Positions 2,601 to 53,613 of a stretch of 64,000 nt of DNA are shown here, in pieces (the stretch's first letter is position 1; every line of letters starts with the position of its first letter). The translations under genes were made by a program, and so were the position numbers. Source of the DNA: Octopus vulgaris (lineage: Eukaryota); the NCBI GenBank assembly GCA_951406725.2, contig OX597815.1, positions 203,918,001-203,982,000 of the forward strand, written 5' to 3'. The notes below the pieces were generated by a model. The model was not told where the DNA came from, did no database searches, and saw nothing but the letters and a program-made list of their open reading frames with translations.

Positions 2601-3591
2601 AGATTAGTTTAATCAAATCGTTACCGTGCAATGTGTTCGATACTTGCTTATACTACTAATTCTTAATATTTACGTCGTAGTGTCGGTATAATTACCTCAC
2701 TTGAGCTACCGATTTAAATTAGGTTTCTTTCTTACAGCACCAGTCATGAACCTGTAGTGATTCACTTATTATGAGTTGAATATGTAGCTTATTCATTTTA
2801 AGAAGACGGACATACGTATCCTGCATAGATTAATAAATTCCTGGAATCACAGACACGTTTTTATTATCTGTGTCTGTGTGTATGTGTTTCATAATTATAC
2901 ATACGATTTCCTTTATATTTATGGTCCACAAATACCTTTTAATTATTTTTTCTAAATCATAACATTTTGTTAGATTCTTAAGCATCAGTCAAACGATGTT
3001 CTTATCCAAACCAATTTATATGCTAATAAAGACGACATACTTTCAAATTCCGCCGCGATCGACTTTGCCTTTCATGGCAGTCAAAGCTTAGAACCATGAA
3101 AACACATTTTTACATTAAAGCACATTGTTTATACGCCAGAAAGACATTTGAGTGAATAAGAATTTTAGTTAACCTTATACCTATGAGTTTCACTATTAAT
3201 GACCAAAGAAATCAATTATAAGACAATTAATTGATTAGTTAATGATGCCATTTTTAACGTGTAAGAAATCCAGGTGGTGGTTGTCTCTCCCTGTATGTTT
3301 CATACACTTTCATATTTAAATATATTTATGTCTTCTGTCTGTTATTACGCATGCTGGCCACTGGTAAAAAATTATTTAATAATTTTTACCCTTGTATTTA
3401 TAAAGTTAAATATTTCAATTCTTCGGCCGGATAGTATACGTTTGAATTTATTCACTGCTATACTACTCTGGTTTCGCACGTTGATTTGAGGGCATTCGTG
3501 GTGAATCTTAGATGTATGAACATGGAACTGAATGGGTACATGTTTACTTTGTGTTTTCAATACGTATTGTAGTCTCATAGTTATACATTTC

Positions 3592-4088: not shown

Positions 4089-5010
4089 AACTAATATTTT
4101 TATTCACTCAAATGTCTTTCTGGCGTACAAACAATGTGCTTTAATGTAAGAATGGTGCAATGAATGCGCCTTGGCGCAAAATAACTGTCGGTGCACAATG
4201 TCCTTATCATCACCATCTCTACCATATCTTCCAACAAGAAAATACTCTATAGTTGTTACCAACAACAACTACACATCATCTCCGATGGTATGCATAGCTA
4301 AAATCATTAACCTGCTGATGCTATCAATTGGAAGCAACTTTCGAAACTAGCTCTTCAGGCACAGATGTACCGCTCCGCAGGATTATCTGTGATACCCATT
4401 GAACGGGAAAATGCTCGGGGATTCCCTTCGGGTTCGATTCGATAAAAGGTATTCGTTAGGTAATTTAATTGACCTAACCAGCAAGTGATTAACATTTCCA
4501 CAAATATTTGTATCCTTAACGTAATTCTCACGCAGTCAGAGTGACATAATTTGTCACAAGACTGTATATTTGAATTTCAGATACAATCATACGACAATCT
4601 TACGAACGGTTTCCGTCCACCCAATTTCACTCCTAAGCTAGATATGGAACCCGAACTATAGAAAATGACATTTATCAATAATACAATGCAGTGGGATCAA
4701 ATCCAGAAGCTTTTGGTTGCGAAGGGATCTCCTTAAGTATTAGGCCATGATATTGGAAAATTTTCTCAAGAGTGCTTTTTCATGAAGTGCACACAGCTGA
4801 GTACTGGTTAAGAGATCTTTGCCTTCTTCCCTTAACAAAGTATTATTATTAAAACAAATGATGTTTTCCAATCTCATTATCAGTGTAATATTTCAGTTAA
4901 ATTTAAATTAATTTGGTGCCACTACGTCAAGAAGAATAACTCATATTCACACACACGTATATACATATACACACTCACGTATACGAGCGTACAACACACA
5001 CGCGTACACA

Positions 5011-5397
5011 TGGAAGCATTCCGTCGGTTACGACGACGAGGGTTCCGGTTGATCCGAATCAAACGGAACAGCCTGCTCGTGAAATTAACGTGTAAGTGGC
5101 TGAGCACTCCACAGACACGTGTACCCTTAACGCAGTTCTCGGGGATATTCAGTGTGACACAGAGAGTGACAAGGCCGGCCCTTTGAAATAGAGGTACAAC
5201 AGAAACAGGAAGTAAGAGTGAGAGAGAGTTGTGGTGAAAGAGTACAGCAGGGATCACCACCACCCCCTGCCGGAGCCTCGAGGAGCTTTCGGTGTTTTCG
5301 CTCAATAAACACTCACAACGCCCGGTCTGGGAATCGAAACCGCGATCCTACGACCGCGAGTCCGCTGCCCTAACCACTGGGCCATTGCGCCTCCACA
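5011..5397 (-). mobile_element. SINE family C, full length, TSD ~CGTACACAT
   Basis: Near-identical reverse complement of 3592-3974. Confidence 0.92.
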
Positions 5398-5699
5398 CGT
5401 ACACATATCTGTGTGTGTATGAGTGATATTTTACAAAACTGATCATACTTCCATTCTGTTTGCTTATTCATGTTATTTATTTTTTCACTTTCTCTTATAC
5501 TTGAATTTCTGTGCAACCATTTATTTTGTTATTTCATTCTCCTTTGAAGCCATGCCCTACCTGACACATTGTAGAAAACTGTTTAAGCTAATTGTGTAAT
5601 TTATTCAATGTGTTTCTTTTATACAAGAATCATGAACTTAAGTATTTCTTAGGAAGACTAGAAGCCCCTGTTGTGTATCTTACTATTTTCAAACATTAT

Positions 5700-5932
5700 A
5701 TATTTCTTTACTACCCACAAGGGGCTAAACACAGAGGGGACAAACAAGGACAGACAAACGGATTAAGTCGATTACATCGATCCCAGTGCATAACTGGTAC
5801 TTAATTTATCGACCCCGAAAGGATGAAAGGCAAAGTCGACCTCGACAGAATTTGAGCTCAGAACGTAACGGCAGACGAAATACGGCTACGCATTTCGCCC
5901 GGCGTGCTAACGTTTCTGCCAGCTCGCCGCCT
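5700..5932 (-). mobile_element. tRNA-derived SINE family B, full length
   Basis: GGCGGCGAGCTGGCAGAAACGTTAG head; CCTTTCATCCTTTCGGGGTCGATAAATTAAGTACCAG central domain (Meta-domain-like, from memory); imperfect TSD TTCAA(A/G)CATTA. Confidence 0.88.
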
Positions 5933-7166
5933 TTCAAGCATTACAATTTACTTTCCATGTACTTCAGGACAGTGAAGTGGTTCTCGTAAATGTAGAGTTC
6001 AGAAAGGGTTATGAAAGTTCATTCAAAACATGTACAATGACATATTTGAAAATGAGATCTTTTTGTTTTCTTGGGAAGTAAAATGATACCATATTCCCTT
6101 ATATATCGAGTTGCTTTCAGAACAATTTTAGGATCGGTTAATATAAACACTAAATATATGGGAAGCTATTATTAAGTCCGTTGCCTGAGATAACAAGAAT
6201 TTAGGATTTCCGAATAAAATTCATGAGCATTTAAAACACAGCGTGATATTTACAAAGATTTATGACTCATTCCTTTAGTATTTGCAGCTTTGAATTTCAC
6301 AAATGTATTTGGAATTCAATAAGACTGTTCCTTATATTTTCTTTATTATTGAAACTCCTGTTATGTCCTATTGTCTGTTGCTATTTCCGTTTTGTCAGTT
6401 TTCATTATATCAGTATTGTTCTTTACAATACATCCGCTTCTCTTTATTTGCTTGAGTTAATCTTTACTTTACATTTTTGTTTGATAACTGCATTCAGCGG
6501 CGTACAATGTTATATAATCTTTCGTCTAAACTTAAACCACTAATTGTTATACAAGAGTAGCATTTCCTTATTTTATTATCAGTCACAGGAACCCTGCATG
6601 ACCTAAAATGCTTCTTTAGGAATAAATTAGCGACAGTGAATAAAGGGAGTTTTTTTCGGGTCACACCTTTAACGCCAACGTTATCTCAAAAGGTTTCACA
6701 TTATTTGGATTTACCCCGAAGAGTCAAAAAGTATGTAAATAACGGTAAATTGGAACGGAAAAAGAAAAGCTTTTGATTGAATGAAAACTATGTTCAGTAT
6801 TTATCGAGTAAGAACGGGATCAAACACCGTCAGTGCTGATGTTCAGACAAACTATAGTACAGTACGTGGTATGGAAATATGTCAATAAATCTGGACCTTT
6901 TTCCCCTCCTGTAAGATACCTAAAGATTTTTTACCTCTTCCTATATGTCTGCAAAAGAACTTCTAGTACGTAGTGACATCTACGTGACCTACCACAAAAC
7001 TGGATTCAAAATAAATTAATCACCTCATGAGGAAATATTTAGAGATACAATTCATAAGGCATATCTATCTATCTGTCTATTTATCTATCTATCTATCTCT
7101 ATATATGTGTATACAACACACACGCACGCACACACACACACGCGCGCGCGCATACACAGATATACA

Positions 7167-11509: not shown

Positions 11510-13035
11510 CACAAAGAAGTAGGGGCTGCAGATATTAAGGAAATAATGCTTTGATTGATGATCAGCACTGGTATGACTTTTACATTACCCCCTCGCATTC
11601 TAAACAGTTTTTTCCATTTCCACTTTCAGTTTCGAGTACTTGGTGATTTTTTCAACCTATTTACTCACAAAATTCGTACCATTTGGTATGGCTACATCAA
11701 TGATCTGACCGTATTTGTCTCTCTTATTCAATATGACAATATCCGGCCGACGGTGTTTGTTTACACAATCCGTCTGAAAATCAGTCCCAGAATATCGTTA
11801 CTTTTCCATCCTCCTGCATAACTTTACTTGGTACATGCTCATAACAGTTCTCTGTTACTTCATATTCGTATTTATGGCATAAGTGCCAATGAAGATACAC
11901 ACACACACTTTATCGTGGCGGCGTTTGTATTCTTTTTGTGCAAGGCCCTCACATCCACTTACCAAGTGGATCACATTTTCCACACTCTTTCCACATAGTC
12001 TGTATTTCTGGGTGTCAGAAGTTTTATAGATGTTATACTTCACTGAATTAGTAGCAAGAACCTGGTCTTGTGTAGCAATGATCAGACTTTCGGTGGTACG
12101 CTTCAAATCACCTCGTTCAAGCCATGCCCACGATGCTGTATTATGCTTAACGTCTCGTGTATTCCTTCCAAACTCTATGCATTCTCATTTAAGGTTTTCT
12201 TTTCTCTTCTCAGTTCTTTGGTTAAACTCTGCCTTACCCATCATTTCATCTGAATTTACACATATGCATTTACACACATGCGTTTACACCCATATCATAT
12301 TGCAGCAGGTCTTCATCACTATCTATCAAATACGCGGCAAGCGTTCTTCTTTCACTCCTTATACAATAGTCTATACTAATTAGTCCTCTGCCACCACCAT
12401 TTCTTTTCGTATACAATCTGTTTACGTTTGCTTTAGGGTGTAGCGCCCTATGCAGCGTCATCAACTTTCTCGTTCTTCTATCCAGTTTTGTTATTTCCTC
12501 CTTAATCCATTTGAGGATGGATGCACTATATCTGACCACCGCAAATTTCCAGATACTCATTGTAGTAATCAAATTTTTGGCATTCAGGTTGGATTTCAAC
12601 ACCATCTTCATCCTTTTTTGATACGCCTCGCTACCTTGACTTTCATTTCTCTGTGTAGAATGTCAGCCAGCTCCAAAAACCCTAAATATCTATACCCACT
12701 ACCGTCGGGTTCACCCATGGGCTCTCCGGATGGTAACCGCAATCCTCTGCAGACAGCTTTCTTCCCTTTTTTAATATTAAGTACTGAGCATTTGGCGATC
12801 CCAAATGCCATACTGATGTCCCTACTACACTTCTGAACTGTTTCGGTTTAGGACTCTATCTGTTTTTCAGATTTCCCACACAATTTCAGGTCATCTATAA
12901 ACAGAAAATGGTTCAACGATGGGCCTTTCTTCCCACATCGGTAACCCATTTAAACTTTCCTAAGTATCATTGTTATGGGTATTAGAGCAATTAAAAAAGG
13001 TAACGGAGATAACGAGTCACCTCGGAAGATTCCCC
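11510..13035 (-). mobile_element. R4/Dong-clade non-LTR retrotransposon, 5'-truncated, disrupted
   Basis: GIFRGDSLSP, NHFLFIDDLKL, YRYLGFLE, RLY.KR..GGRGL, QDQVLAT..CG...E.V.HL.SGC..LA..EYKRRHD (CCHC+RHD), RRPDIV..D..IP..K restriction-like endonuclease. Confidence 0.88.
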
Positions 13036-13039
13036 ATCA

Positions 13040-15570
13040 TTATTATTATTATTATTATTCAGTAGTCTTATTTTTATAACGTACTTTCATTGCACTACTG
13101 AGCCCAACTCTGTGTGCCTCGGGTATGTTTTGTAACTTGTTGTGATGCTCTTATAGATAGTGTAAGGAAAGTGTTTTACGTAGGATGTGTGCGGTGCCTA
13201 GTAGTGCTATTTTCTGTATGTTGTATATATTTGCTATTCCTAGTGTTTTTGTTATGTACATGGGTTGGACAAAATAATGGAAACACCTAACATCAGAGCA
13301 TCATAATTTTGAAATGTCTATAAAAACAACAAAAGCTTGTTTATTTTTATATCTTTTGATTTATTATTAGTATCGTTTAATATGTTTTGCTAAAATTGCT
13401 GTTTCTTTTCAGATATCATCAGAAAAAGGTAATTAAAATGCATTAAAATGACACATCTATCGGACTTTTTGATACCTATTATCTTGTTTTTCGGATTGAG
13501 CTCTGTTTTCAATATTATTCTAACTCGTGTACAGTATTCTTTTTTTTTTATTATTTTCTCTTTCATTTGTGTGTGTTGTATTGTATCTTGTTCATTGGTT
13601 CCTAAGTATTTGTATGCCTTGCTTTGGTCTAATTCTCTTATTTCATTTGCTTTATCTAGTGTTATGTTACTACTCTTAACTAGTTTTCCTCTTTTCAAGG
13701 TTGCTTTAGTACATTTTTCTAAGCAAAATTTCATGTTTATTTCTTTGGTAAATCCATGTACTGTCTGTAGTAATATTTCCAGCTGTTTATCATTTGTAGC
13801 GTACAGTTTTAGATCTTCCATATATTTGAGTTGGCTGATTGTTTTGCAGTAACGGTTTTATCCACATCCAGTTTTGTTTAGCAAGTCAGATAAAGGTATC
13901 AGTGCCAAGCAGAGAAGGAGTGGAGAGAGCGTGTCTCCCTGAAATATTCATCTTCTAACGGGAATGGCTTTGCTTTTTATGAGTCCCTCTTTTGTCTGGA
14001 GCTGTAGCATTGTCTACCATTTATTCATGGAATGTTTTATATATTTTATGATTATTTGTGCTACCTTGTTCATGGCTAGTGTTTCTAGGATCCATGTATG
14101 GGGAACGCTATCAAAAGCTTTTCCGTAATCGATTCAGGCCTTACTTAGACCCTTCTTTCTGCGGCTGTTTTCAGTTATGGCTATATTGATCAGTCGCTGA
14201 TCTTTACAACCGTATGAGCCCTTGTAGCATCCCTTCTACTCTTCTGGAAACAGGCTATGTTCTTCCTGATGCTGGCTCAGTAAAGGCTTTGTAAATTTCA
14301 GTGGATTTGGGAATTAGGATAGTTTTCCCTTTCATGAGCCATTCAGGCATTGTTTGTGGTTCTGTTAGTATTTCATTAAATTTCTCAATGTGTGTTGTTA
14401 TTAGGTATTTAATCAGAAATTAGGGAACTTGTCGTGCCAGGGTGCCTTCTAGTTGCTTAGTTTTTGCATTGCCTAAGTGACCGCTTCAGTTGTTAAAGGA
14501 GTCCAAAGTTGTTCAGGTGCTGTGTTCGTTGTTTTGATAAATCTTTGCTGAGGTTCTTCCTTCGCCGACCATATTTCTTTCCAAAATTCTTCCACTTCTG
14601 CTGTTGGTGCTGCATTGATCTCAATTTTATTTTTGCCAGGTTCTTGGCAGAATCTTTTGGGATGAGAGTTGAACTGTTCATTTTGTTCAAAGAAATGTTG
14701 GCGTTTCTCAAACTGATGGATTCTTTGTGCTTTGGTGAGGATATCTTGCTTTAGCTGTCCTTTTACCTCAGATATACCTTGTTCTGTAATTTTGTATTTA
14801 CATAGTATTTTCTTCTCTTCTTGTTGCCTTAGTAGTGTTCATTTCATTTTCTTCTAGTTTCATTAAGGATTGACAAATCCTGTCTCTTATTTTCTATTTT
14901 TTCTGAATATCATTTATCCACAGGGTTTGTATGGGTGGTGATGCTCCTGCTTGGATGGGTTTTAGGGAGTATCTAGCCGTTTTTGTGACCACAGAGGCTG
15001 CTGCATATATTATATCAATTAGCCGGGTCATATTGACAATTTTTTTCTGTGGCTATTAGTTCTGTGCCGGGCAGGTTCATGCTATTTATTATTGATGTTG
15101 TTTTATTATCAATTTTAATTTTGGGGAGGTATAATCGGTGGTCCACACTGAGGTCTGTGGCTTTCAATTCTTTGATTATGCTCATTTTTAGACTATCATA
15201 ATCATTAGTTTCACCTTCGCTGTTACCAGGTTTTAGATTTGCTTCCTATTCCCTCCCGTTCATATTTTTGCCTGGAGTGGTCTGGTTTCATGCATTTTGC
15301 AAATCATTATACATTCCTACGGTCTGGGTTTGTTGTCTTTTGTTGTTTACTTCATTTTTGTTGGACATGTTACGTTGGACATTTTCGAGTTCCAGTGCTT
15401 ATGATATTATTTGGCATTGCTGTGTCGTTACTATTTATGTATTCCTGGTGTGTTTTTCCTTTTAACTGTTCTATTTCTGTGTCTGATAGTTTTTTGATTT
15501 GAGAGTATATCTCCGTATGGTAGCTAGTTTATTATGGCGCATTGTTGTATCCAAATCTTTATCTTTCAGA
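13040..15570 (-). mobile_element. Second R4/Dong-clade element with (TAA)n 3' end, internally deleted
   Basis: MEDLKLYA...YKYLG RT motifs, DYGKAFDSVPH; C-terminal IQKIALLGTAHILRK and 3' UTR ending in (TAA)n at 13040-13060. Confidence 0.85.
13259..13462 (+). mobile_element. Tc1/mariner terminal fragment
   Basis: TA|CATGGGTTGGACAAAATAATGGAAACACCT resembles a Tc1-type TIR after a TA target; it replaces the missing middle of the Dong element. Confidence 0.65.
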
Positions 15571-16379: not shown

Positions 16380-16678
16380 TTCATTTGTGGTCTTAAATGG
16401 TTTTGCACGTGTAGTTTTTCGCACATTTTGTGTAACAAGTTCAAAGTACGTACTTCCCGTTTGTTATCCTTGGGTTGCATAATACTGGTATTATATAATT
16501 TATTGTTCATTTTTTTGTACATGTTGGTTGGAGGAGACGGAAATGGTCTGATGTTGAACGGATCGCAATGTGGCAAGTGTGTTTACAAGTGTTCCGCGAG
16601 GGATGGAGATGATACACATTTAAAATACATCGTTTCATTTGGGAAAAAGGAATGCATTTTAACGAGCATCATTCGTAT

Positions 16679-16769
16679 ATTGTCCAACACTTTTAATGCA
16701 TATTACTTACTCGGGTATTGTCCAACACTTTTAATGCATATTACTTACTCGGGTATTGTCCAACACTTT
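16679..16769 (+). repeat. ~38 bp tandem repeat x2.4
   Basis: ATTGTCCAACACTTTTAATGCATATTACTTACTCGGGT repeated. Confidence 0.9.
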
Positions 16770-19448: not shown

Positions 19449-19915
19449 ATGCGGTGAACAAGCAGAATCCTTAGCATGCCGGTCAAAATGCTTAGCAGCC
19501 TTTCATCCGTCTTTACGTCTAAGATCAAATTCTGCCGAGATCGACTCTGCATTCCATCCTTTCGCGGTCAATAAAATAACTAACAGTCAAACTCTGGGAT
19601 CTATGTGATCGACATAACCCTAGCAGCCTTTCATCCGTCTTTACGTCTGAGATCAAATTCTGCCGAGATCGACTCTGCATTTCATCCTTTCGCGGTCAAT
19701 AAAATAACTAACAGTCAAACTCTGGGATCTATGTGATCGACATAACCCTAGCAGCCTTTCATCCGTCTTTACGTCTGAGATCAAATTCTGCCGAGATCGA
19801 CTCTGCATTTCATCCTTTCGCGGTCAATAAAATAACTGACAGTCAAACTCTGGGATCTATGTGATCGACTTAACCCTCCTGTGAAACTGCTGGTAGTCTA
19901 TCATAATTTGAAACC
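19449..19915 (+). mobile_element. Old SINE family B with internal 128-bp unit tandemly triplicated
   Basis: Units start at ~19493, 19621 and 19749; nearly identical to each other, diverged from the family consensus. Confidence 0.88.
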
Positions 19916-35589: not shown

Positions 35590-35658
35590 CTTTCTCCATC
35601 TCATCGTGCGTATATACATATACATGCATATATACATACACACATACACAGAAATATA

Positions 35659-35700
<42 letters not shown>

Positions 35701-35723
35701 CACATATATATGTATATATTTAT

Positions 35724-35790
<67 letters not shown>

Positions 35791-35793
<3 letters not shown>

Positions 35794-35844
35794 GGAGTTC
35801 TACAGGACTAGTACTGTTTCATTCAAGAGAAATCATCAGGAAGC
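35791..35844 (-). ncRNA. Inverted second copy of hammerhead (stem I shortened)
   Basis: Reverse complement of 35849-35903 with a 1-nt deletion. Confidence 0.75.
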
Positions 35845-35901
35845 AGGAGCTTCCTGATGATTTCTCTTGAATGAAACAGTACTAGTCCTGTAGAAGCTCC
35901 T
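35845..35901 (+). ncRNA. Canonical type-I hammerhead ribozyme
   Basis: AGGAGCTTC-CTGATGA-TTTCtcttGAAT-GAAACAG-tactagtc-CTGTA^GAAGCTCCT: 9-bp stem I, 4-bp stem III with an ACTAGT palindrome in the loop; predicted cleavage after 35892. Confidence 0.88.
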
Positions 35902-35981
35902 TCTATATAATAAATTAATTTTACTCTGCTATGTATTGAGTACCTTATTTACTGTGGTTAACCCCGAATCAACCCGGGACC

Positions 35982-36019
<38 letters not shown>

Positions 36020-36028
36020 TATACATGC

Positions 36029-36078
<50 letters not shown>

Positions 36079-44287: not shown

Positions 44288-44361
44288 AATTTAAATGTTG
44301 AAGTGAATCTAACGGTTTTTGTGTGTGTTTAAATGGCTTATAAACCACCTTCCACGCTGCA

Positions 44362-44407
<46 letters not shown>

Positions 44408-44430
44408 TGTTTGTTTGTGTGTGTGTGTGA

Positions 44431-44463
<33 letters not shown>

Positions 44464-44494
44464 CGTGTGTATATGTCGGGCTTCTTTCGGTTCC

Positions 44495-45013
44495 AAATAT
44501 AATCACAACTCTATGGTCGACATGCATAAGATCTGGTCATCAAATCTAAGTAGAGACTTCAAACTTGAAATCTTCAAAGCCACAGTCGAACCAATTCTAC
44601 TATATGGCTCAGAAACCTGGACGTTATCAAAGAAGCTTGAGAGGCGGTTGGATGGAACCTACACTCGCCTCCTTATGAGAGCTCGAAATCTCTCGTGGAA
44701 GCGCCATCCAACCAAAATGCAAATATATGGGAAACTACCACCTGTTTCATCTCTTGTGAAAGGTAGGAGAGTCCAGTTTGCTGGACATTGTTGTAGAGCT
44801 GAAAACGAGGCAATTTCTACTCTTCTCCTCTGGAAGCCATCTACTCGCAACACCAGTGGGCGCACACTCTCCTACCCTGATGTAATCTCCAGGGATACAG
44901 GCATCCAGCAACAGGACCTCCGTAATGCTATGATGGACCGTGAAGTCTGGCGTAGCATGGTAAATTCCATTGTCTCGACCACGGTCGAACAATGATGATG
45001 ATGATGATGATGA
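44495..45013 (+). mobile_element. RTE-clade LINE 3' end, open frame, (TGA)n tail
   Basis: KIWSS.L....KL.IF.ATVEPILLYGSETWTL...RRLDGTYTRLLMRA...FAGHC.RA; ends CAATGATGATG. Confidence 0.9.
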
Positions 45014-53031: not shown

Positions 53032-53431
53032 GAAATAGAAAGATGATATATATATTTCTTCATACAATATATATATATATATATATATATATTGTATATA
53101 TAGAGAGACACACATGAGCCACTCCTAATTCATTCTTCCTTGACCTTAAACAACACTAAGCCCTACCACACACATAGATTAACAGCCACAACCACACACA
53201 CACACACACACACACACACGTGTTATCATTGCACACATACACACACACGCAGACTTGCGCGCACGCACATATCCACACTTACATACACATACCTCCTTTT
53301 GCACTCTCCTGTCTTTGAAAGAACTTTTTCTTCACCCATTCCCTTCCGGTCATTCAAAATGTGACCGCGTGTGTACCGTTGGCGATTTTTTTTCCTCCGT
53401 CTTCCCTTCTTTGGACCTTTCCTTTTCCTAT

Positions 53432-53467
53432 GTTTCTGACGAAGAGCTCCGCTCGAAACGTTGAAAC
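53432..53467 (+). ncRNA. Minimal hammerhead in PLE-like end 53290-53570
   Basis: GTTT-CTGACGA-A-GAGCtccGCTC-GAAACGTT-(G)AAAC. Confidence 0.75.
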
Positions 53468-53564
53468 CCTCCTTCTTTCCTTCTTTCCTGAGCGTCCAAT
53501 AATGCTATACTTGTTCCACGTCCTCGCGTTGTTGTGTTTTCTCTTTCTGTTTTCATGTTTGGAT

Positions 53565-53613
<49 letters not shown>

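Follow-up and report, generated by a model that had tools for sequence, protein, structure and literature searches.

What leaves two hammerhead ribozyme cores back to back on opposite strands of a (TA)n microsatellite, and does the pair do anything as RNA? The arrangement lies in a 64,000-nucleotide stretch of the Octopus vulgaris genome (contig OX597815.1), hereafter the window, and the initial annotation described it as a 120-bp element, nothing but two hammerheads, with TA repeats at both edges. The palindrome itself is real: an inverted repeat of 58/59 nt (arms 35787-35844 and 35849-35907, loop of 4 nt at 35845-35848) contains both cores, has a predicted fold of -103.1 kcal/mol (z = -22; 0 of 200 shuffles equally good), and is adjoined by (TA)n at its left edge. 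The proposed extent is too short: a further ~80 bp belong to the element, which ends at 35984, and (TA)n on the right begins only at 35985 rather than at 35908. In a genome search with 35846-35984, all 40 scored places match 137 to 139 of the 139 bases at 99 to 100% identity, and the matches stop at the same base, after which (AT)n follows. The insert covers 35785-35984, 200 bp, inside (TA)n. Its parts are given below, with element positions (+/-) numbered from the predicted hammerhead cut, which on the plus strand falls after 35892.

35611..35790, no strand: left (TA)n target microsatellite, whose final bases are shared with the left arm's outer end
35785..35844, minus strand: tail-less inverted arm, element -44 to about +17, from blastn against a natural full copy
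35794..35844, minus strand: minus-strand hammerhead, core 35839-35833 intact, predicted cut after 35801
35845..35847, plus strand: junction of the two arms, three bases not native to the element, of which G 35847 occupies -46
35848..35898, plus strand: type I hammerhead with complete core; 35848 is the putative first RNA base
35899..35984, plus strand: remainder of the tail-bearing arm, with an AT-rich inner end site (+15 to +27) and the tail to +92; in full copies this region belongs to the 5' UTR
35985..36077, no strand: right (TA)n target microsatellite; its first 4 bases, ATAT, are also the native continuation of the element

Parent element and genome-wide structure of insertions

To judge from its sequence, the window insertion is a promoterless stub of a young Penelope-like element (PLE) of the Hydra clade. 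Long copies contain a 5,193-bp tandem unit that comprises the hammerhead, the 5' UTR, an ATG at +138, an ORF with reverse transcriptase (RT) and GIY-YIG domains, and a microsatellite-like 3' region; as this last region takes up 2.8 kb, the unit reaches 5.2-6.0 kb. Read directly, the ORF shows the RT motifs MGANDS and YRDD and a C-terminal VY..YIG region. The available text of Craig et al. (2021, PMC8557442) gives RW(R), DKT, a CxCX5C linker, CxxC and CxH, plus GIY-YIG at the C-terminus, as diagnostic of the Hydra clade. The ORF carries IRWRSFF (RWR, of the RWK type), PSDKTK (DKT instead of DKG), CNCHDKTTC (the CxCX5C linker), and CDLC (CxxC) and CMH (CxH), which surround the conserved E and N, and a linker of the same type is found in all eight homologues displayed, with 5 to 7 residues before the third Cys. 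Only one Cys lies between the two nuclease motifs, and CCHH, which the Hydra clade also lacks, is absent. The Neptune and Nematis clades were rejected, as the ORF lacks both the CX2-5CxxC linker and the CCHH motif. A search with the ORF gave 9,733 relatives. Pfam support is sub-threshold: of 12 homologues, 2 had matches, all below the cut-off, neither an RT nor a GIY-YIG family matched the ORF itself, and a PDB sequence search with it came back blank.

Further traits agree with this placement. Insertion into (TA)n is a Hydra-clade trait, and the tandem copies, inverted 5'-truncated copies and tail at one end are those of EN+ PLEs. As far as the same source is available, Hydra-clade PLEs share with the window's family the motifs, the (TA)n target and a type I hammerhead with a U-U base to stem II, and one of them, Penelope-13_HM, has an inverted 5'-truncated copy with a hammerhead on each strand, as in the window stub. 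The Hydra families listed there are mostly <3 kb, a general tendency rather than a diagnostic motif, and have a loop 3 of 1-3 nt, whereas the window's family has 5.2-6.0 kb and 8 nt; the hammerhead of Hydra-1_oBim also differs in sequence from that of the window's family (PMC8557442). The ORF is broken at the same C homopolymer in four of five copies inspected (L080, L075, L065, L069 and L211), which reflects either a mutation in the source or an assembly error. A different long RT and GIY-YIG ORF, apparently with CCHH-type cysteines, is nested in a copy of the window's PLE family at L062 (about 4250-6600, minus strand).

Counts over the whole genome are 2,318 for tail-bearing arms, 4,896 for intact cut sites and about 1,388 for back-to-back hammerhead cores, the last including a few loci twice. 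We sampled the first 100 tail-bearing arms by position on contig C1, two rows of which are one insertion. An inverted partner lies within 110 bp in 41 cases and at 110-10,000 bp in 34; none was detected for the other 25, one of which is in fact an overlooked minimal palindrome. The minimal stub is the commonest single insertion product of the family. On this point the initial annotation, which called the locus a minimal product of PLE fold-back insertion, is borne out; the fold-back half of that description is less likely, given unequal long arms and unshared deletions (see below).

The ends of these insertions are highly regular. Parsing of the 100 arms gave 74 pairs, with 5 spurious matches removed and 21 arms left without a partner. 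Tail ends read CTA-CATATAT in 78 of 95 parsed cases, that is, the arm ends at +92 and ATAT follows, while the tail-less partner ends at +15 to +27 in 72 of 74 (47 of them at +23); one insertion bears a tail on both arms. The inner boundary of short arms falls at or slightly inside -45, the first base of stem I, and solo arms, tail-bearing and tail-less alike, begin at -45; only 6 of 100 arms start between -52 and -200. Loose ends at -45 are also found in contigs from four of four public sequencing runs, and one of these ends continues into an inverted core. No strand-change joint is listed for these contigs, absence from that listing being uninformative, and no RNA run is listed as containing the element in a search of sequencing runs. 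Many junctions between arms have a loop of 0-2 nt. One full-length copy carries a minimal stub with two hammerheads in the (TA)n of its own 3' region, at L075 (about 3070-3280, minus strand).

The window has other repeats. A minimal hammerhead of another repeat family, probably another PLE end, lies at 51275-51226 on the minus strand (core 51267, 7-bp stem II, no loop 3), and at 53430-53570 on the plus strand a further one (core 53436) is separated by about 110 bp from the (TA)n that comes after it, with a similar repeat in L027. We take 12270-13857 (minus) and 44333-44995 (plus) to be fragments resembling non-LTR retrotransposon ORFs, and near-perfect tandem arrays with periods of 19, 38 and 128 bp occupy 353-524, 16678-16769 and 19493-19877.

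Two cDNAs or a fold-back

The stub is likely to be two short cDNAs, primed on opposite strands of cut (TA)n, run off the 5' end of a capped RNA and joined head to head. RNA polymerase II would start at A(-45), and the hammerhead would therefore be the first 51 nt of the mRNA. The RT-endonuclease would cut both (TA)n strands, and these would prime where the RNA has TA-like stretches, one strand at +92 to +96 and the second at +15 to +27. When priming occurs on the 5' copy of the region, both cDNAs would end at -45, with lengths of about 65 and 140 nt, often gaining a C opposite the cap, and their 3' ends could be joined either by way of the AGCT in stem I, which is self-complementary, or once they had been trimmed. 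A downstream copy in a read-through tandem transcript, serving as template, would instead give kilobase-long arms.

The foremost alternative is fold-back, in which a single cDNA from the tail end stops at -45, folds back and is copied through the hammerhead to the other (TA)n end; in a variant proposed for rotifer PLEs, the published reading in the available part of PMC3846280, the RNA self-primes on an antisense template. Taken jointly, we consider these routes unlikely, and for the narrower choice, that of two primed cDNAs over fold-back, our confidence is fairly good. Agreement between arms speaks for fold-back, as does the self-complementary AGCT at the axis. The loop-3 marker is concordant in 73 of 74 pairs (short with short in 41, long with long in 32), and both arms therefore come from one source. 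The window copy also has a private haplotype on both arms, namely a loop-3 A combined with the CUGAUGA core (2 matches genome-wide); the loop-3 A by itself, with 2,111 matches, was rejected as a private variant. This shared haplotype suits fold-back or arm-to-arm conversion, and also a source copy that the assembly lacks.

Arm lengths argue against fold-back. Among 35 long two-armed insertions, the tail-less arm is the longer in 15, the tail-bearing arm in 15, and the two are equal in 5; 8 of the 35 pairs mapped incompletely, some with nested inserts, and for the 27 that mapped cleanly the counts are 11, 12 and 4. The excess of the tail-less arm is >50 bp in 15 of 35 (11 of the 27 fully consistent pairs) and reaches 2.3 kb. 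Later off-centre deletion of a fold-back palindrome can also give unequal arms, and three long pairs are within 20 bp of symmetry. Furthermore, where the tail arm carries a deletion and a partner was detected, the partner is intact in all 12 cases, an argument against fold-back that holds only for deletions made in the course of copying. Fold-back is also disfavored by tail-less solo arms, which likewise begin at -45 and have the extra G, and by many junction loops of only 0-2 nt.

The two-cDNA route further gains from the nature of the -45 boundary, at which we infer a capped RNA start. In 48 of the 49 long arms, of both subfamilies, the first base of a TATA box (TATAAAT) lies 29 nt upstream of -45, and 29 nt is the usual spacing from TATA box to start for RNA polymerase II. 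Of the 44 solo arms that meet (TA)n at -45, 29 have G at -46, 6 have C, 5 have A and 4 have T, as counted by hand with overlapping rows removed. This excess of G is significant (p = 1e-8), the element itself having T there and the target offering only T or A, and the extra G is single in 28 of the 29 solo G junctions; the window copy, too, has a G in this position (35847). An extra G in cDNA is linked to the mRNA cap. It is, in the available text of PMC9731452, a known product of reverse transcription at mRNA starts. No shared upstream exon is seen at these junctions. Together, the stop at -45, the TATA spacing and the extra G thus make two run-off cDNAs of a capped RNA the likely origin of the stub. 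Junctions with C rather than G at -46 are L223, L242, L248, L253, L255 and L236, five of the six in the CUGAUGA subfamily. L225 has +8 of one arm fused head to tail with the -46 G of another, a joint that resembles a jump from a capped end onto a different RNA.

The same two-cDNA route could operate if -45 were not a transcription start but a processed RNA end or an RT stop, a reading to which we assign little probability. A 3' splice site is suggested by the AG at -45/-44, by a branch-like CTAAT upstream in one subfamily, and by Drosophila Penelope, whose intron extends up to the 5' side of helix I (as far as available, PMC4209133). However, splicing would fuse an exon at -43, yet the arms retain -45 and -44 and have no common upstream exon. 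Snap-back on the stem I complement would likewise add G at -46, but it predicts GG or AGG, which is found in only 1 of the 29 solo G junctions. The promoter of Drosophila Penelope is TATA-less (PMC2377424), whereas here the 29-nt TATA spacing, kept in 48 of the 49 long arms across both subfamilies, argues for a transcription start.

Ribozyme folding and deletions at the predicted cut

The plus arm has the CUGANGA core, GAAA, NUH triplet and three stems of a type I hammerhead. CUGAUGA is at 35854-35860 and GAAA at 35873-35876; stem I pairs 35848-53 with 35893-98 (6 bp in native context), stem II (35862-71) has 3 bp on a U-U pair in place of G10.1-C11.1, and the 4-bp stem III with its 8-nt loop (35876-91) leads to the GUA triplet. 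The label "canonical" given in the initial annotation thus sits poorly with a short stem II on U-U, and Rfam shows no hammerhead family at gathering score and none at E<=10, only sub-threshold generic hairpin families. Nor is the minus strand a faithful inverted copy: its core is present (35839-35801), but G at +4 is missing, between 35797 and 35798, which leaves a stem I of only 3 bp. Alone, the minus-strand hammerhead reaches -0.4 kcal/mol with pair probabilities of about 0 (stem I, 0.00). By computation, the plus arm from -45 to +13 folds as a hammerhead with stem I pair probabilities of 0.71-0.94, and when it is lengthened to +92 the stem I probability falls to 0.01; cleavage, if it occurs, would therefore take place early in transcription or with help from a protein. 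The available text of PMC11167929 reports cleavage by an Anolis PLE ribozyme as protein-assisted. A loop-3 kissing dimer is possible, with a predicted -17.2 kcal/mol.

Folding also bears on the proposal in the initial annotation that the stub is a functional bidirectional RNA-processing switch, in which cleavage competes with hairpin formation. Both cores are intact and the plus arm alone folds with the stem I probabilities above, yet in the full element hammerhead pair probabilities are 0.00 on either strand, the hairpin having -113 kcal/mol versus -8 kcal/mol for the hammerhead. The comparison of full and half folds that went with the proposal comes out as expected for the plus half, which folds, and for the full hairpin, which sequesters the ribozyme, but not for the minus half. 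As the arms are joined 5' to 5', read-through from either flank makes the antisense arm before the ribozyme, and with the minus stem I also broken, neither ribozyme is predicted to fold. There is no promoter at the axis, the putative TATA promoter being outside the stub, and about 1,388 equivalent stubs are dispersed in the genome. No host coding ORF of at least 130 aa lies near the site, a cut-off that short exons would escape. A switch is accordingly highly improbable, and the stub as DNA is predicted to be inert, with read-through yielding a 58-bp hairpin and not a ribozyme. An assembly artefact is just as improbable, given the non-native junction bases, the one-base difference between arms, the many different junctions at about 1,388 loci, and the -45 boundary in contigs of four public runs, one possibly the assembly's own sample.

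The G missing from the left arm of the window copy belongs to a wider pattern. Genome-wide, 344 arms have a deletion within +1..+5 after the predicted cut, against 4,896 intact, whereas control deletions number 32 arms in the 8-nt loop 3 and 23 arms in +6..+12; per base, cut-site deletions are 17 to 21 times more frequent than the controls. The first 100 of the 344 arms, classed by hand, comprise 36 without G+4, 20 without G+1, 24 without both, 11 that lost exactly +1..+5, and 9 others. All 30 deletion arms examined are short arms, 27 of them in minimal palindromes, and in 26 of these 27 the deletion is confined to one arm. In an unbiased sample, deletions occur in 12 of 90 short arms versus 1 of 84 long arms (p = 0.003); solo, non-palindromic short arms, with 2 deletions in 39 parsed of 44, fall between the palindrome and long-arm rates. 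The deletions affect both subfamilies and either arm, lie at various distances from the axis, and occur even where stem I has no 5' strand in the DNA. For the public-run contigs, the listing at the 2% threshold shows none at +1 or +4, absence from that listing again being uninformative. As for arms that end near the cut, L252 ends exactly at the predicted cut and continues into TA-rich sequence, and L156 departs from the element two bases past it.

Loss of +1 or of +1..+5 joins downstream sequence exactly to the predicted cut, a junction resembling what an RT jumping templates onto a free RNA 3' end would leave, and non-LTR RTs do make template jumps. Loss of G+4 alone, the window allele, is not accounted for by a simple jump. 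Alternative sources are RT skipping in a folded but uncut stem, mutation driven by the palindrome, and long-read consensus error in hairpins, such errors being known in nanopore data. We consider the deletions probably real lesions; that ribozyme cleavage caused them, as scars of an RT crossing a cut template, is plausible but falls a little short of probable. Still more tentative is the full chain, in which the PLE mRNA would begin with the hammerhead, the double strong-stop insertion would be the commonest product, and about one in seven short arms would be scarred by an RT jump over the ribozyme nick, leaving a germ-line record of cleavage in which the cleaved RNA was still copied.

Known systems and significance

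The stub itself is ordinary: hammerhead pairs on opposite strands and inverted pLTRs with a one-sided tail are already published, in the available text of PMC4209133, PMC8557442 and PMC3846280. Inverted pLTRs of EN+ PLEs are likewise head-to-head 5'-truncated copies with a one-sided tail (PMC8557442; Arkhipova et al., 2013, PMC3846280), and Cervera and de la Pena (2014, PMC4209133) describe dual min-HHRs, again two hammerheads of opposite strand, with about 100-700 bp between them. In the same sources, as far as available, the published inverted-pLTR tail is 30-40 nt compared with about 70 nt in the window's family, which also differs in that about 40% of its insertions are minimal and the axis is fixed at stem I. 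The templates differ as well, as antisense self-priming was proposed for the published pLTRs whereas a sense capped RNA is favored here.

For the two-cDNA route, the closest biochemical parallel is the PLE protein PAc (Poseidon, Anolis), which in vitro cuts and extends both target strands (Frangieh et al., 2024, PMC11167929; available text). Its two internal RT start sites bound the tail and its target is AT-rich, which the outer ends of the window's family fit. In contrast, PAc priming needs no homology to the cut DNA, while both ends of the window's family show TA microhomology, a point against our model. Hammerhead cleavage is dispensable for PAc and no RNA-seq read ends at the cut, whereas in the window's family deletions cluster there. 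In the available portion of that paper we found no explanation for inverted copies or cap-ended run-off products.

Non-LTR retrozymes (10.64898/2026.07.22.740005, available text) are also short non-coding hammerhead sequences related to PLE pLTRs. They are head-to-tail tandem units, whereas window-type stubs are head-to-head with varied junctions; as head-to-tail tandem monomers are absent, a retrozyme identity was rejected. Because the junctions vary, each stub seems to be made anew.

The PLE family bears on two questions, the origin of inverted pLTRs with a one-sided tail and the role of the hammerhead in vivo. Our literature search, confined to papers available without subscription, found no earlier report of the capped-start signature or of cut-site deletions in PLEs. 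Should the deletions prove to be cleavage scars, they would amount to evidence in DNA for self-cleavage in vivo, for which the same search also found no report. The ~1,400 young stubs make these ideas testable: the RNA should be capped where stem I begins, at its first base, each insertion should involve two primers, and RT errors should fall only in the 5 nt past the cut.
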